A stretch of 64,000 bases of DNA from Thermoanaerobaculia bacterium (GTDB lineage Bacteria > Acidobacteriota > Thermoanaerobaculia > Multivoradales > UBA5704): the NCBI GenBank assembly GCA_035490435.1, contig DATHEF010000044.1:67571-131570 (forward strand), given 5' to 3'. Positions within the stretch are counted from its first letter, which is position 1. Each line of letters opens with the position of its first letter. The notes under the pieces were generated by a model. The model was given only the letters and a program-made list of their open reading frames with translations, ran no database searches and was not told the origin of the DNA. The position numbers and the translations under genes were made by a program. Below, piece by piece: positions 14,025 to 58,953 of the stretch.

Positions 14025-14114
14025 GGGAGAGATGTCCGAGTGGCTTAAGGAGCACGCTTGGAAAGCGTGTGTAGGGGAAACTCTACCGTGGGTTCGAATC
14101 CCACTCTCTCCGCC
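14025..14114 (+). tRNA. tRNA-Ser (anticodon GGA)
   Basis: Cloverleaf with long variable arm, anticodon loop TTGGAAA, T-arm GTGGGTTCGAATCCCAC, CCA encoded. Confidence 0.85.
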
Positions 14115-14137
14115 ATCGATCTCAAACGTAAGACAAC

Positions 14138-14227
14138 CGGAGAGGTGCCAGAGCGGTCGAATGGGGCGGTCTCGAAAACCGTTGACCGGGCAACCGGTCC
14201 GTGGGTTCGAATCCCACCCTCTCCGCC
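14138..14227 (+). tRNA. tRNA-Ser (anticodon CGA)
   Basis: Anticodon stem GCGGT/ACCGT, loop CTCGAAA, long variable arm, identical T-arm, CCA encoded. Confidence 0.85.
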
Positions 14228-14382
14228 ATTCGCTGTTTCGTCTGCCGCTGAAGGACGGGCGTCCTTGACGTACTCCCCTGCGGTGCAATACTTTACGGGT
14301 TTCGTTCCAACCGAGCGGGCGGTTCCGGACCAGCCGGCGGTCCCGCGATCCATGACCTCGACTTCGAAGAAGGCGGCCACAC

Positions 14383-31074: not shown

Positions 31075-31281
31075 TCAGGAGATCTTGACGACGTTCTTGG
31101 CCTGCAGACCCTTCGGGCCCTCGACCACGTCGAAGCTGACGCGATCGCCTTCGGCCAGGGTACGGAACCCCTCGGCGATGATCGAGGCGTGGTGGACGAA
31201 GACGTCCGCGCCGCGCTCCCGCACGATGAATCCATAGCCCTTGGCGTCGTTGAACCACTTCACGGTACCTTGCTCAGACAT
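31075..31281 (-). CDS. cspA: Cold-shock protein (CspA family)
   Basis: 68 aa; RNP1 KGYGFI and RNP2 VFVHH motifs; long 5' leader upstream. Confidence 0.93.
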
Positions 31282-31707
31282 ACGTTTGCTCCTTGCAACA
31301 TGAAACAGGGTTGTTGTTCTTGCCGCGGTTTAGACGGCATCCTCCACCCCACAAGGGGGCCAAATCATTTGCTTCAATCGAGAAGCTCCGGCCGGCTCTC
31401 TCCTCTACGGACGACCCCGATGGGATCTGGCGTTGCATGGCTGCAAGGAGTGCGCTTCGGGAGCGTGTCGCGCTCGGTTCGCTGTCCGGGTCTGCTGAAT
31501 CCTCTCGCTCTCTACTTTGGAGTCCGGGCGATCCGCGTCGTATCTGGCAAGGTATGCACCTGAGTCGGTTGCTGCGGGGGAATGTGTCTATGGCAGGGCA
31601 ATCTTCGTGAAACCGCTACCAACCTTTTCTGTGTGCCACTCGGTATTTCCGAAGACTATGGCATCTCCGCGGACAGAAATCAAGAGGACGCCATCCGGTA
31701 AGATCCG

Positions 31708-32367
31708 GTGATGTCGACGCGCATTCCAAGAAAGCTCGATGCCGTGGAGGTCCGGGTGCTCGGCTCGCTTCTGGAGAAGGAGCAGACGAACCCTGAGACC
31801 GTGCCGATGACCATCAACGCCCTGATCGCCGCCTGCAACCAGAAGACCAATCGCGAGCCGGTGATGCAGCTCACCGAGAACCAGGTGGTCACCGCCCTCG
31901 ACTGGATGCGGCAGGAGGTGCTCGCCTGGCGCTCGGAGGGGGCGCGCACGGAGCGCTGGCAGCAGAGCGTGGTGCGCCGCTGGGGGCTGGACCGCGCGGG
32001 CAAGGCGCTGATCACGCTCCTGCTGCTGCGCGGTCCGCAGACGGCGGGCGAGCTGCGCACCCGCAGCGAGCGCCTCCACCCCTTCGCCTCGCTGGAGGAG
32101 ACCGAAGAGGCGCTGCGCCGCCTGGCCGCGGACGACGAGCCGCTGGTGATGGAGCTCCCCCGCCGGCCCGGCCAGAAGGAGGCGCGCTGGACTCATCTGG
32201 TGGGCGAGGCGTCCCCGGAGCCCGAGAGCGAGGAGATCTTCGAGGCCGCCGCCGATCCGTCCGCGCTCCCCCGGCCGGGCCTCGCCTCGCGGGTGCAGCA
32301 TCTGGAGGAGATCGTCGAGCGGCTGGCGGCGGAGCTGGAGGAGCTGAAGCAGCAGTTGGGGGTCTAG
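31708..32367 (+). CDS. yceH: YceH/DUF480 family protein
   Basis: N-terminal LDAVEVRVLGSLLEKEQTNPETVPMTINAL signature. Confidence 0.8.
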   Translation: MMSTRIPRKLDAVEVRVLGSLLEKEQTNPETVPMTINALIAACNQKTNREPVMQLTENQVVTALDWMRQEVLAWRSEGARTERWQQSVVRRWGLDRAGKALITLLLLRGPQTAGELRTRSERLHPFASLEETEEALRRLAADDEPLVMELPRRPGQKEARWTHLVGEASPEPESEEIFEAAADPSALPRPGLASRVQHLEEIVERLAAELEELKQQLGV

Positions 32368-33416
32368 GTCACTTCGATCCGCGCCGGACCTTCCAGCACC
32401 TCGCCGACATCGGCCGCCTGATGGCCGCTGGCGAGCAGCGCGGCGAGGAGCCCGGGGGCGTTCCCGGCGGGCACCGCGAGGAGGAGCCCCCCCGAGGTCT
32501 GGGGATCGAAGAGCACCTCGCGCCGGATGCGGTCGAGCTTGGCGTAGTCGCTGAGGACGGCGCTCACATTCTCCTCGTTGGCCACGGTGCAGCCGGTGGT
32601 CACCCCCGCCTTGATCAGCCGGTAGATCTCCGCGTGGACCGGCAGCCGTTCGAAGATGAAGCGGACCGCGACCTGCGAAGCCCTGGCCATGCCCAGCGCG
32701 TGGCCGGTCAGGCCGAAGCCGGTGACGTCGGTGGCGGCATGGGCGCCGTGCTCGAGGGCCAGCCGGCTCGCCACGTCGTTCAGCCGCTCCATCTCGAGCA
32801 GGGCGGGCTCGAGGCCGTCCTCGTCGATCTTGTCGGCCTTGAAGGCGTTAATCAGGATGCCGGTGCCGAGCGGCTTGGTGAGCAGCAACCGGTCTCCCAC
32901 CCGCGCTCCGGCGTTGGTGAGCAGGCGCTCGGGATCGGCCTCGCCGATGACCGACAGGCCGAACTTCAGCTCGGGGTCGCGCACCGAGTGGCCACCGAGC
33001 AGCACGGCGCCGGCGTCGAACAGGGCCTCGGCGGCGCCGCGCAGGACCCCCGCGAGCGCCTTGTCCCCCTCCTCGTCCACCTCGGGAAAGCAGCAGAGAT
33101 TGAGGGCGAAGAGCGGGCGGCCGCCCATGGCATAGACGTCCGAGAGGGCGTTGGCGGCGGCGACGCGGCCGAAGCGGTGCGGATCGTCGCAGACCGGGGT
33201 GATGAAGTCGGCGGTGGCGACCAGGGCGCGGTCGCCGAGGAGGTAGACGCCGGCGTCGTCGCCGGTCTCCGCGCCGACGAGGATCCTCTCATCCCGTCCG
33301 AAGAGCCGGACGAGCGGAGAGATCATCGTTGAAAGGTCCCCCGGACCTATCTTGGCCGCTCAGCCGCCGGTGGTCGCGCAGGCGGTGAGGCGGAACTTGC
33401 GCCGGAACAGTGCCAT
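32364..33416 (-). CDS. selD: Selenide, water dikinase SelD; probable selenoprotein with in-frame UGA (Sec) at 33360..33362
   Basis: AIR-synthase-like fold. Track ORF starts at Met 33326, but reading upstream in frame gives MALFRRKFRLTACATTGG-U-AAKIGPGDLSTMISP..., aligning with E. coli [26 protein letters not shown] (U at catalytic Cys17). Hairpin GGUCCGGGGGACC 12 nt downstream of UGA. Confidence 0.75.
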
Positions 33417-33506
33417 GGCGGGGGATTGTATCTGTATCTGAAAACCCCGGATCTGAAACACCCTTCCGCTATCCTGCGTAAATCGAAAAGACGACAGGAG
33501 AAATCC

Positions 33507-36687: not shown

Positions 36688-36730
36688 CCGTGAACAGGGC
36701 CGCTCGCGCGGGGCGGCCCTGTTCCCTATA
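36688..36730 (+). terminator. GC hairpin terminator after aqpZ (GAACAGGGCCGC...GCGGCCCTGTTC)
   Basis: 12-bp perfect inverted repeat; weak T tract. Confidence 0.5.
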
Positions 36731-36738
36731 CTTCAACC

Positions 36739-37035
36739 ATGAGCGCTCCATTCGAGACCCTAGTCATCCCGCTATATAAGGACGAGCACGGCGTGATTCG
36801 GGTGGCTGGTACCTGGGTCACTCTGGACTCTGTAATCTATTCGTTTCAGGAAGGCTCGACGGCTGAACAGATTCTCGAGGATTACCCGAGCCTGGGATTG
36901 GCAGACGTCTATGCTGTGATCGGCTACTACCTCCGCCATCAGGAAGAGGTCGACGCCTACCTCAGAGAGCAGAGCCGGCAGGCCGAGGAAGTACGCCGGC
37001 AGGACGAAGCGAGATTCTACCGGCAGGGAATCTAA
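36739..37035 (+). CDS. DUF433 domain protein
   Basis: C-terminal half matches DUF433 (GTWVTLDSVIYSFQEGSTAEQILEDYPSLGLADVYAVIGYY); first gene of low-GC island. Confidence 0.75.
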   Translation: MSAPFETLVIPLYKDEHGVIRVAGTWVTLDSVIYSFQEGSTAEQILEDYPSLGLADVYAVIGYYLRHQEEVDAYLREQSRQAEEVRRQDEARFYRQGI

Positions 37036-37232
37036 GGTCTGCTGGCGCGCGGCTCGTCAAGGCCATCGAGTTCCTACTAATATGGAAACGCCCTAAAGTG
37101 AAGAGAACCTCGGGAGAAGCCCGTCTGCCTAACCCTCAGCTTCGAGGAGAGGGTGAGGGGGTTGCTACAGGTGAAGGTGGGGCCAAGCGGAGAGACACAG
37201 AAGAAACGCGCACCTCCGGCGGAAAGCCGGTG

Positions 37233-37826
37233 ATGCAAGAAGAATCAGGTGCGACCCCAACATACGTCCAACTAATGGAACTCTATAAGATAGCGGTCGA
37301 CGAGTACAGGTTCCAGGTGAACCTTAACGCACAGCGCTCACGTGACTATTTTGTCTTGAATTCGGCAATTATCGCCTCGGCGGTCGCGCTATTAGGCCAA
37401 AAAGCCAATATCTTGGCGGGATCGGTGTTTTCAGTGGGATTCCTGGTTGCTGTTATGACAGGGCTCGGGTTTCACACGCAGCACAACTATTATCGAGAGA
37501 CGCAGGCGACCAAGAGGCAATTGGAAAGCCGGCTGGGCATACAGGACGGCGTAGTGAAAACTACGCCGTCTGCTGGTAGCCTTCGTCGGCGAATCGGTAG
37601 CGTGACTCAGTTTAATTACAGTATAATTACTCTGCTCTGCTTGGTGAATATCCTGGGAGCGCTCTTTAGCTTCTCCATACTGCCCTTGCCAACCAAAAAG
37701 GCTCTGAAGGCTGCCGAGCCCACTATGAAGACTTCTCCGGCTTTAAAATCGCCACGGCTCCAGCCATCAGAATCTGCACCTCTCAAGCCCGTCAACCTGC
37801 CGGCTCCACGCGGATCCCGCCCCTAA
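37233..37826 (+). CDS. Hypothetical 3-TM membrane protein with short amphipathic N-terminal domain
   Basis: ATG at 37233 (MQEESG...); track GTG at 37098 adds a low-complexity Gly/Glu/Arg leader, likely non-coding; TMs at ~37390, 37430, 37620; ~50% GC. Confidence 0.55.
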   Translation: MQEESGATPTYVQLMELYKIAVDEYRFQVNLNAQRSRDYFVLNSAIIASAVALLGQKANILAGSVFSVGFLVAVMTGLGFHTQHNYYRETQATKRQLESRLGIQDGVVKTTPSAGSLRRRIGSVTQFNYSIITLLCLVNILGALFSFSILPLPTKKALKAAEPTMKTSPALKSPRLQPSESAPLKPVNLPAPRGSRP

Positions 37827-37844
37827 AGCGCGAGAGGGTCGCTG

Positions 37845-38375
37845 TCAGTCGGCTGCGGTTATGAGCCTGAGAGTCGAAAGATAGAAACGAAATAGGAAAC
37901 GGAACGTCTCGGTGAAGTCGCCCGGTGACCGGAGCATCCAGTCCTGAATCTTCGGTATGGGTTCGAATTGGAGACGTTCGATATGGTCTGGCTCGCCAAC
38001 AGCGACGATTGGAGCTGAGGTGAGGTAAAGGGTTATGAATTTCTTGGTGCCTTGGTCCAGCATGAACGCGCTTCCGAACTTAGTTAGCGGTGTTGTGACA
38101 CCGAGTTCTTCCTTTAGCCGTCTGACCGCCCCATCGAGGTATTGCTCTCCTGCGTTCAGGTACCCCGCAACCGAAGATCCCCACTTCAGGGGATTGCGGT
38201 CTCGATTCTTGCCAAGTTGTTGCAGTAATAGACAACCTTCGCTGTTGAAGGTAAAGATATGCACCACTCGGAATCCGGCCTGACGTTGAAAGACTTGGCC
38301 GCGGGGAATTTGGGCAATCGGCTTGTCGGCAGCATCCACCCAATCGATTAAAGAGGAACCGCTGGGTGCAGGCAT
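37845..38375 (-). CDS. NUDIX hydrolase
   Basis: Nudix box GYLNAGEQYLDGAVRRLKEELGV; AAGGGAG RBS 9 nt upstream of ATG; low GC. Confidence 0.8.
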   Translation of the reverse strand: MPAPSGSSLIDWVDAADKPIAQIPRGQVFQRQAGFRVVHIFTFNSEGCLLLQQLGKNRDRNPLKWGSSVAGYLNAGEQYLDGAVRRLKEELGVTTPLTKFGSAFMLDQGTKKFITLYLTSAPIVAVGEPDHIERLQFEPIPKIQDWMLRSPGDFTETFRFLFRFYLSTLRLITAAD

Positions 38376-38404
38376 CGTTATAGCTCCCTTCGGTCTTGGT
38401 GCAC

Positions 38405-38698
38405 CTACTTACCCCACGCTATGGACTGCTTCTCCGGCTCTTCGCTCTCAGGACGGGGGAAGCTATAAAGCTTGGCTCCTCCGCCTCGCCGTTCCTGAAG
38501 AAATGCCTCTTGGGTCAAACCTAGAGCACGGTGCTCTTCAGTATGGTGCTCTAGCCACTCTCGGACGATCCGACCGACCAGAGAATTTTCACTGGTCTCG
38601 AACCCAAGCTCTATGAGTTTCGCCAAGACCCATTTATCGTAGTGGGCGCTCCAACCCTGAATCTTTATCCCTCGGTCTTTCGCCCTACGATCAGCCAC
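38405..38698 (-). CDS. Putative ribbon-helix-helix (CopG/Arc-like) DNA-binding protein
   Basis: Beta-alpha-alpha pattern GIKIQGW / HYDKWVLAKLIELGF / ENSLVGRIVREWLEHH; GTG start abutting a perfect palindrome; no SD, so call is tentative. Confidence 0.45.
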   Translation of the reverse strand: MADRRAKDRGIKIQGWSAHYDKWVLAKLIELGFETSENSLVGRIVREWLEHHTEEHRALGLTQEAFLQERRGGGAKLYSFPRPESEEPEKQSIAWGK

Positions 38699-38724
38699 GT
38701 TGTTGATCGTATATGATCAACAAC
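38699..38724. promoter_or_regulatory. Perfect 10-bp inverted repeat GTTGTTGATC-GTATAT-GATCAACAAC immediately upstream of the RHH gene
   Basis: Read directly; candidate operator or hairpin. Confidence 0.5.
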
Positions 38725-38761
38725 ACAGCGTCAATGCCATAGCTCTCTCCGGGTCGGGATC

Positions 38762-49755: not shown

Positions 49756-49849
<94 letters not shown>

Positions 49850-57485: not shown

Positions 57486-57575
57486 TGGCGGAGGGGGTGG
57501 GATTCGAACCCACGGGCCGCGTGAACGACCGGCGGTTTTCAAGACCGCTGCTTTAGACCGCTCAGCCACCCCTCC
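57486..57575 (-). tRNA. tRNA-Ser (anticodon TGA)
   Basis: Minus-strand GGAGGGGTGGCTGAGCGGTCTAAAGCAGCGGT-CTTGAAA-ACCGC..., long variable arm, CCA; directly downstream of serS. Confidence 0.85.

Positions 57576-57606: not shown

Positions 57607-58953
<1,347 letters not shown>

Follow-up and report, generated by a model that had tools for sequence, protein, structure and literature searches.

Where does a selD gene begin when the reading frame leading into its listed start is interrupted by a single UGA codon? This question is raised by a 64,000-nucleotide stretch of contig DATHEF010000044.1 from a Thermoanaerobaculia bacterium, which we refer to in its entirety as the window. The original prediction for this locus, which gave no strand, held that the open reading frame (ORF) listed there for selD starts too far downstream, and that the gene is read through an in-frame UGA placed at the catalytic position of the enzyme. 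We find that selD lies on the minus strand, and based on the evidence laid out below we consider it highly probable that its product is itself a selenoprotein, translated from an ATG at 33416 with the UGA read as selenocysteine (Sec) at residue 19 by means of a downstream hairpin acting as a selenocysteine insertion sequence (SECIS). The features that define the gene, with the orthologous loci mentioned being those described further below, are as follows.

32364..33416, minus strand: full-length selD coding sequence, its 350 codons counting that of Sec19 and being followed by the TAG stop (32366-32364); delineated by translation, TIGR00476 and Pfam
33414..33416, minus strand: start codon ATG (Met1), kept in 60/60 orthologous loci, the next 17 codons being conserved at the protein level and variable at synonymous sites
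33360..33362, minus strand: in-frame UGA, codon 19, predicted to be read as Sec; TGA in 60/60 loci and aligned with the catalytic Cys
33351..33353, minus strand: Lys22 codon AAG of the U/C-x-x-K loop, equivalent to Lys20 of Escherichia coli SelD, as aligned to 3U0O and 2YYE
33324..33326, minus strand: internal ATG (Met31), mistaken for the start codon by the ORF track and by public gene calls

Reading the minus strand from 33416 yields ATG GCA CTG ... GGC GGC TGA GCG GCC AAG ATA GGT CCG GGG GAC CTT TCA ACG ATG, which translates as MALFRRKFRLTACATTGG-stop-AAKIGPGDLSTM, with AAKIGPGDLST directly following the TGA. From the ATG at 33416 the frame passes through 18 codons to the UGA at 33362-33360 and then through 331 further codons to the TAG ending at 32364, with the TGA as its sole internal stop; direct reading thus bears out the claim that the frame upstream of the Met at 33326 is free of any stop other than this UGA. 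The listed ORF (32364..33326) encodes 320 residues and is, as had been asserted, exactly 30 codons shorter than the 350-codon read-through frame. The same truncation pervades the public record, in which the exact protein and all 120 of the closest database clusters are products of approximately 320 residues. We conclude that the 320-residue product of the gene callers is an annotation artefact that is devoid of the catalytic Sec/Lys loop, and that the correct feature is complement(32364..33416), with a transl_except for Sec at complement(33360..33362).

The protein encoded by this frame was examined by profile searches in which the UGA was replaced by Cys. The 350-residue product matches the NCBIfam equivalog model for selD, TIGR00476, with 342.9 bits over model positions 1-308, above the cutoff of 125, and displays both domains related to AIR synthase, namely AIRS (PF00586, 85.1 bits) and AIRS_C (PF02769, 70.2 bits). 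When the extension is left out, the 320-residue form scores 317.2 bits and matches model positions 35-308 only; the extension hence contributes model positions 1-34 and 25.7 bits, and the alignment to TIGR00476 that had been suggested as a check comes out in favor of the longer protein. The score with NF002098, the model for the E. coli-type enzyme, is 297.9 bits, just below its cutoff of 299. Among solved structures, the highest scores are obtained with SelD of Aquifex aeolicus (223 bits; 2YYE/2ZOD) and of E. coli (198 bits; 3U0O), relative to which the metal- and ATP-binding motifs DDAGVY, TADF, SDVYAMGG and TDVTGFG are conserved. The protein-level match is far above chance, and the sequence identifies the gene as selD, coding for the predicted selenide, water dikinase (selenophosphate synthetase) of a Thermoanaerobaculia acidobacterium. 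In the same alignments, the residue opposite the UGA position is Cys17 in E. coli SelD (3U0O) and the Cys of SSG-C-AAKVGPGDL in the Aquifex protein (2YYE/2ZOD), such that GG-U19-AA-K22 is aligned with GAG-C17-GC-K20 of the former and SSG-C-AA-K of the latter. This residue-for-residue correspondence upholds the placement of the UGA at the essential Cys17/Sec17 position. In E. coli SelD Cys17 is the selenide-binding residue, and the C17S mutant is inactive (PMC3956282). As the counterparts of Cys17 and Lys20 both fall within the extension, a 320-residue protein would be left without the catalytic loop.

Comparison with related genomes provides an independent view of the same region. A scan of one genome per species, using patterns derived from six peptide stretches, none of which lies over the hairpin and one of which (MALFRRKF) falls in the N-terminal leader, recovered 68 loci. 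The orthologue set used throughout comprises the 60 loci, including the window, that display the motif FRLT...GG-stop-A[AG]K, and contains 59 distinct sequences. These loci come from assemblies labeled Thermoanaerobaculia or Acidobacteriota, along with a few broader titles (two Holophagales and one 'bacterium'), on which grounds the window is assigned to this class of soil acidobacteria; their SelD proteins share 62-98% amino acid identity with that of the window. Codon 19 is TGA in 60/60 of these loci and TAA or TAG in 0/60. The 18-codon leader peptide MALFRRKFRLTACATTGG is nearly invariant across the set: the entropy of the 17 upstream codons is 0.13, 0.10 and 0.82 at codon positions 1, 2 and 3, respectively, and pairwise comparisons of these codons reveal 9275 synonymous versus 1183 non-synonymous differences. 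This pattern points to purifying selection on the upstream peptide, the mark of a translated segment. Beyond the UGA, Lys22 is invariant in 59/59 distinct orthologues, the codon of Met31 specifies Leu or Ile in 14/59, and a Shine-Dalgarno-like motif precedes Met31 in only 1/60 loci. Among more distant homologues, the codon-19 column is occupied by TGA in metagenome-assembled genomes (MAGs) of Rubrobacter (L061) and Desulfobacteraceae (L063) and by TGC (Cys) in a member of the Acidimicrobiales (L060). Hence, the gene presents an in-frame UGA opposite a Cys of its homologues, with conserved coding sequence on both sides, as would be the case for a selenoprotein gene. A conventional start at the downstream Met in close relatives, which the original prediction had named as grounds for its own rejection, is contradicted by the unbroken retention of the TGA, the loss of that Met in about a quarter of the orthologues and the near-absence of a ribosome-binding motif before it.

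The region immediately upstream of the proposed start codon contains a further conserved element.

33425..33430, minus strand: TACAAT, a -10-like hexamer located 8 nucleotides upstream of the ATG at 33416

A hexamer of the form TAnRAT ends 6-10 nucleotides upstream of the selD ATG in 55/60 loci (TACAAT in 38, TAGAAT in 13 and TAAGAT in 4), with the sequence further upstream being unconserved across the loci. A Shine-Dalgarno-like motif upstream of the selD start is found in just one of the 60 loci and is lacking in the window, and a generic promoter scan detected no complete sigma-70 promoter. Taken together, this suggests that the selD mRNA may be leaderless, or nearly so, across the class, with transcription presumably starting at or close to the ATG. 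The conserved -10-like hexamer furnishes independent support for the ATG at 33416 as the true start.

If the UGA is to be decoded as Sec in a bacterium, a SECIS element would be sought directly 3' of it within the coding sequence. The following features occupy that region.

33348..33359, minus strand: 12-nucleotide spacer GCGGCCAAGAUA from the UGA to the hairpin, read from the sequence
33335..33347, minus strand: core hairpin GGUCC-GGG-GGACC (GGUCCGGGGGACC), its stem of 5 bp being capped by a GGG triloop (33342-33340), from predicted folds
33331..33351, minus strand: extended stem-loop, in which the core is lengthened by an A-U pair, then a U·U mismatch and two more pairs, with -10.3 kcal/mol in context

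The hairpin (33347-33335) indeed starts 12 nucleotides past the UGA, after a spacer spanning 33359-33348, and its GGG loop begins 17 nucleotides past the UGA, i.e. covers nucleotides 18-20. The published consensus for the bacterial SECIS (bSECIS) specifies a loop of 3-9 nucleotides with a G among its first two bases and an upper stem of 4-16 bp (PMC13188914), as well as a distance of 16-37 nucleotides from the UGA to the loop and a minimum free energy of at most -7.5 kcal/mol (PMC13188914). With a GGG loop of 3 nucleotides, a 6-bp stem, a spacing of 17 nucleotides and -7.9 kcal/mol, the hairpin falls within each of these bounds, and the statement that it sits where bacterial SECIS elements are found holds good. 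It also agrees with an alternative description of the bacterial element, in which the stem measures 6-8 bp and a G of the loop lies approximately 20 nucleotides past the UGA (PMC4605307). In those relatives in which CUG replaces CUU, the stem becomes a perfect helix of 9 bp with -13.7 kcal/mol. These observations support the prediction that the hairpin acts as a bacterial SECIS.

The pattern of conservation at synonymous sites speaks more directly to the role of this structure. The hairpin GGUCCGGGGGACC is invariant in 59/60 loci, synonymous sites included, and the third positions of its codons GGT CCG GGG GAC (+5 to +8 relative to the UGA) show zero entropy across the 59 distinct sequences; over codons -17 to +23, third-position variation is seen in all other conserved degenerate codons. 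In the stem, the U of GGU is matched by the A of GAC, the G of GGG by the second C of CCG and the C of GAC by a G, while the G of CCG forms the first base of the loop, such that the invariance of the four synonymous sites can be explained by each of them being needed by the hairpin. Two rare codons, GGT (5.4% of Gly codons in the confident genes of the window) and ATA (1.2% of Ile codons), are placed exactly where the pairing requires them. When AAKIGPGDLSTMISPL was recoded synonymously under the codon usage of the window, only 1/5000 recodings produced an equally stable and correctly placed hairpin. Further, RNAalifold applied to 31 members of the class retains exactly the core hairpin.

The same peptide is also accompanied by hairpins of different construction in other organisms. 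A scan of metagenome contigs with the pattern GGNGGNTGAGCNGCNAARNTNGGNCCNGGNGAYYT, in which the peptide GG-U-AAK-x-GPGDL is fixed and the synonymous sites are left free, matched at least 119 contigs with 103 distinct sequences. The genes so recovered (L073-L191) possess quite different N-terminal leaders, implying that they belong to several lineages. Among the matches listed, three hairpin solutions are seen for the same peptide, all with G-rich loops 16-20 nucleotides past the UGA. The first, typical of Thermoanaerobaculia, is gguccGGGggacc, with a GGG triloop and, in some members, an extension to 9 bp. The second, guaggucCGGGNgaccuac, has a 7-bp stem and a CGGGN pentaloop, having dropped the inner pair and acquired three outer ones. 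In the third, gggccaggGGAccuggcuc, an 8-bp stem carries a GGA loop, the register is shifted by 3 nucleotides and A-U alternates with G·U. A few metagenome sequences lie outside the three types and form weak hairpins only (-4.4 to -6.4 kcal/mol). The distant homologues from Rubrobacter (L061; 8-bp stem, GGU loop) and Desulfobacteraceae (L063; 5-bp stem, GGUC loop) share the same 12-nucleotide spacer. Thus, in the invariant sites, the computed recodings and the alternative registers alike, the structure is kept beyond what the peptide requires. We accordingly see RNA-level selection on the hairpin, which stands out from chance only once the peptide and the codon usage are kept constant and conservation is taken into account.

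Two further structures were noted downstream of the core hairpin. A second, larger stem-loop (33282-33324, minus strand) begins at the internal AUG and combines an 8-bp inner stem, CUCGUCCG/CGGACGGG, with an outer GAUC/GAUC stem; it employs the rare codons GGA, GAT and AGG, and in L032 and L033 shows a compensatory CCAG/CUGG change. It is limited to a sub-clade with the peptide LVRL(A/F)GRDERIL. We considered it as a part of the SECIS and set it aside, as it appears in the single-sequence fold but is dropped by RNAalifold class-wide and is hence a feature of the sub-clade. RNAalifold additionally predicts a short helix, GUCGG...CCGAC (33258-33278, minus strand; alignment columns 85-105), in which one pair is swapped between CG and GC (15 versus 9 sequences). 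The swap coincides with coupled amino acid changes, A/P and G/A, in VG-A/P-ET-G/A-DD, and could reflect chance, phylogeny or coupling at the protein level.

We then turned to the Sec machinery itself, which was sought by tblastn with E. coli SelA and SelB sequences, along with ARAGORN. As a positive control, the same queries and ARAGORN found selA, selB and tRNA-SeC beside Sec-type selD genes in metagenome loci of other lineages, with selB being recovered by tblastn in L073, L098, L151 and L167. Closer to the window are the SelD proteins of two of these metagenome loci, L099 and L161, which are 73% identical to that of the window and about 80% identical to those of the Thermoanaerobaculia MAGs L028-L030. 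In L099, selA is directly upstream of selD and the tRNA-Sec, with the anticodon UCA and a score of 73.6 bits against Rfam RF01852 (gathering threshold 47), lies just beyond. The SelA of this locus is 100% identical to an NCBI protein titled 'L-seryl-tRNA(Sec) selenium transferase [Thermoanaerobaculia bacterium]' from WNGB01000974.1 (GCA_009772905.1). That contig (also represented by L099 and L197) has the gene order tRNA-SeC, selA, selD, and its selD reads MAWLRRKFRLTACATTGG-TGA-AAKVGPGDL, with the identical hairpin. Further SelA proteins labeled Thermoanaerobaculia are encoded by stand-alone genes, and none of the whole-genome shotgun prefixes of the recovered SelA proteins (DASYJD, JBAIGV, JBAIGX, CCZJVV, WNGB) is found among the selD assemblies. 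Based on these contigs, the Thermoanaerobaculia clade possesses both selC and selA, which supports, though only indirectly, the implied presence of selA, selB and selC in the genome from which the window comes; there, they would be located outside the window.

The genomic arrangement of these genes differs from contig to contig. Among contigs of the Thermoanaerobaculia type, selD clusters with selA in L196 (6001-8504) and with tRNA-Sec as well in L099 (6582-9458) and L197 (9846-12726); L202 (3001-5767), which belongs to a more distant lineage and has a U-A-S-K motif, carries the order selA, selD, tRNA-SeC. In the window and the 60 species-level relatives, selD is found on its own, flanked by a DUF480 gene and an alpha/beta hydrolase gene. 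As selD is clustered in some contigs and alone in others, the sel genes have been rearranged within the class. In the window, selD and the convergent DUF480/YceH-like gene (31702-32367, plus strand) overlap at their TAG stops, which share the palindrome CTAG (32364-32367). Certain ARAGORN predictions of 95-96 nucleotides with long variable arms, called as tRNA-Gly(UCC) or tRNA-Ala(GGC) in L003 (2055-2149), L006 (16589-16684) and L017 (15389-15484), were considered as mis-called tRNA-Sec genes; they match neither the tRNA nor the tRNA-Sec family of Rfam and are probably false positives.

In light of the above, we posit the following course of events. Translation would begin at the ATG at 33416, probably on a leaderless transcript initiated from the conserved TACAAT box, and the ribosome would reach the UGA at codon 19, where the stem-loop 12 nucleotides downstream would serve as the SECIS. 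To judge from the analogous systems of E. coli, Moorella and Aquifex, the elongation factor SelB carrying Sec-tRNA(Sec) would bind this stem-loop, and Sec would be inserted in place of termination. The product would be a protein of 350 residues, with Sec19 and Lys22 situated in a glycine-rich N-terminal loop as the equivalents of E. coli Cys17 and Lys20. Several observations weigh against such a scheme. In comparisons with shuffled sequences, the hairpin attains z-scores of +0.28 to -0.81, making its stability ordinary for a sequence of 68% GC, and among the UGA trinucleotides of the window, 18.6% precede a hairpin passing the loose bSECIS consensus. Thermodynamic stability by itself is accordingly uninformative and was discarded as a line of evidence, with the synonymous-recoding and conservation tests being used instead. 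Rfam reports no family at 33300-33420; to our knowledge there is no general Rfam model for short bacterial SECIS hairpins in coding regions, so this null result says little. With regard to the machinery, there is no tRNA-Sec in the 64-kb window by ARAGORN or Rfam and no selA or selB among its approximately 50 ORFs by NCBIfam or tblastn, and in the 60 relatives none of the three turns up within roughly 10 kb of selD; moreover, tblastn with E. coli SelB found selB in none of the Thermoanaerobaculia loci examined. As the queries worked in other lineages, these negatives in the window and its relatives are to be taken as valid. Finally, a crude scan for in-frame TGA codons guided by GC content at third codon positions (GC3) found no other selenoprotein gene in the window and about 1 Mb of related loci, the candidates that it raised being only adjacent genes in the same frame (dnaX/ybaB) and antisense shadows.

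These points have to be set against the explanations that would dispense with Sec. The UGA might be read through with another amino acid, either by a tRNA-Sec-like or suppressor tRNA bearing Cys, Ser or Trp or by near-cognate read-through stimulated by the hairpin, a mechanism proposed for hymenopteran SPS1-UGA, and this would be in keeping with both the Sec machinery being unseen in the window and the non-Sec read-through documented at this very UGA position in insect SPS1 (PMC4561486). Nevertheless, the hairpin obeys the geometry of SelB-type bSECIS elements, members of the clade carry tRNA-Sec(UCA) and selA beside the orthologous gene with its identical hairpin, and all studied Sec-decoding bacteria with a UGA here use Sec (PMC1794560, PMC4561486), which leaves this explanation very improbable. 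We regard it as more improbable still that the UGA is a true stop, closing an 18-codon upstream ORF that is followed by an independent SelD-like protein of 320 residues from the Met at 33326. Such a protein would lack model positions 1-34 and with them the catalytic Sec/Cys and Lys loop, the C17S mutant of the E. coli enzyme being inactive (PMC3956282); its supposed start codon is replaced by Leu or Ile in 14/59 orthologues and has a Shine-Dalgarno-like motif before it in almost no case; both the would-be upstream ORF and the stretch between the two ORFs align with SelD itself; and the codon is always TGA, never TAA or TAG, in the 60 loci. These facts outweigh the choice of the 320-residue model by all gene callers and the use of TGA as a normal stop codon in this genome.

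That last point, in turn, bears on the least probable of the explanations, which would ascribe the TGA to a sequencing or assembly error, to a recent nonsense mutation in a pseudogene or to a genome-wide reassignment of UGA. In favor of an error is the metagenomic origin of the source, assemblies of this kind not being free of single-base errors, but the same TGA recurs in over 100 metagenome contigs and in 60 independent assemblies, and the gene is otherwise intact and conserved, such that error or pseudogene formation is effectively refuted by the comparative data. A genome-wide reassignment is excluded because TGA is the commonest stop codon, ending 24/44 confident ORFs of the window, and the TGA-terminated dnaX, yidC, sppA and dusB match their families up to the C-terminus. 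Returning to selD as a Sec-containing protein, its UGA and SECIS are located 55-86 nucleotides from the 5' end of the apparently leaderless transcript. In view of this position, the separation of selD from selA and selC in the sub-clade and the lack of any other selenoprotein gene seen nearby, the arrangement could conceivably constitute a selenium-sensing autoregulatory switch, in which the synthesis of SelD depends on its own product and SelD is the main reason for which the Sec trait is kept; we give this idea a slim chance. Less likely than the switch would be a variant in which a non-canonical tRNA, and not Sec-tRNA(Sec), decodes the UGA.

Sec-containing forms of SelD have been known for decades, and the native selD of Aquifex aeolicus presumably has a UGA (Sec) at the catalytic position, the solved structures (2YYE/2ZOD) being of a Cys form. 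The window protein belongs with the latter to the AIRS/AIRS_C fold family, with the same catalytic position and a common loop of the form G-(U/C)-A-A-K-(V/I)-G-P-G-D-L, whereas their overall similarity is moderate (223 bits) and the window derives from another phylum (Acidobacteriota, class Thermoanaerobaculia). E. coli SelD (3U0O; NF002098/TIGR00476) is of the same family and of comparable size (347 versus 350 residues, with residues 6-341 aligned), but has a Cys encoded by UGC that needs no recoding, and its loop reads C-G-C-K as opposed to U-A-A-K here. Like the bacterial SECIS elements of E. coli fdhF and Moorella thermoacetica fdhA, the predicted element is a stem-loop that immediately follows the UGA on its 3' side, within the coding sequence, with a G-first loop 17 nucleotides past it, a stem of 5-9 bp and an energy of at most -7.5 kcal/mol; it differs in being at the small end of the range (13-nucleotide core and triloop) and in having no counterpart of the bulged U of E. 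coli fdhF. In the hymenopteran SPS1-UGA genes, the homologous codon is likewise an in-frame UGA, with an RNA structure coming after it in the coding sequence (PMC4561486), but these insects are without the Sec machinery, whereas the clade considered here has tRNA-Sec and selA beside orthologues of the gene, and a hairpin of the bacterial type.

No bacterial selenoproteins are more widespread than SelD and FdhA, and Acidobacteria have already been listed among the organisms with selenoproteins (PMC1794560). Sec is encoded by about 19% of the SelD genes of prokaryotes, in every case at the position considered here, and mis-annotation of selenoprotein genes is routine (PMC4561486). Our literature search found no paper dealing with Thermoanaerobaculia together with selenocysteine. 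The Sec-containing SelD of Thermoanaerobaculia is hence a further case of a long-known selenoprotein family, and constitutes an annotation correction rather than a discovery; the knowledge of how selenoproteins are made is unchanged by it. Its consequences are nonetheless practical, in that metabolic inference, structure prediction and phylogeny based on the public entries rest on a truncated and catalytically dead model. It also marks Thermoanaerobaculia, a widespread class of soil acidobacteria, as a Sec-decoding lineage, and the compact and sequence-invariant SECIS, with its core of 13 nucleotides, could prove to be a useful minimal recoding element.

The remainder of the window is an origin-proximal housekeeping region, with dnaA, sppA, mutY, recR, dnaX, the signal recognition particle (SRP) RNA, tadA, yidC, rsmG, parA, lepB, tmRNA, dusB and serS. 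It begins with dnaA (60-1451), and brings together serS and four tRNA-Ser genes (GGA, CGA, GCU and UGA) at 14026-14228, 49757-49849, 57486-57575 and 57607-58953; no tRNA species other than tRNA-Ser was found in the 64 kb. Between dusB and the DUF480 gene, at approximately 31100-31600, public calls on identical contigs place a 68-residue cold-shock-domain protein, an ORF which our GC3-based filter passed over owing to its length. A low-GC islet of about 2 kb (36700-38750; 51-60% GC versus 68-71% in the flanks) is situated between the genes for an aquaporin and a large membrane protein; its small ORFs resemble, by eye only, a DUF433-type protein and a NUDIX-type hydrolase, and it was probably acquired horizontally. 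In the chromosome of a relative (L003, 2924-3011), approximately 7 kb from selD, Rfam detects a DUF3800-VII RNA motif with 79.4 bits.

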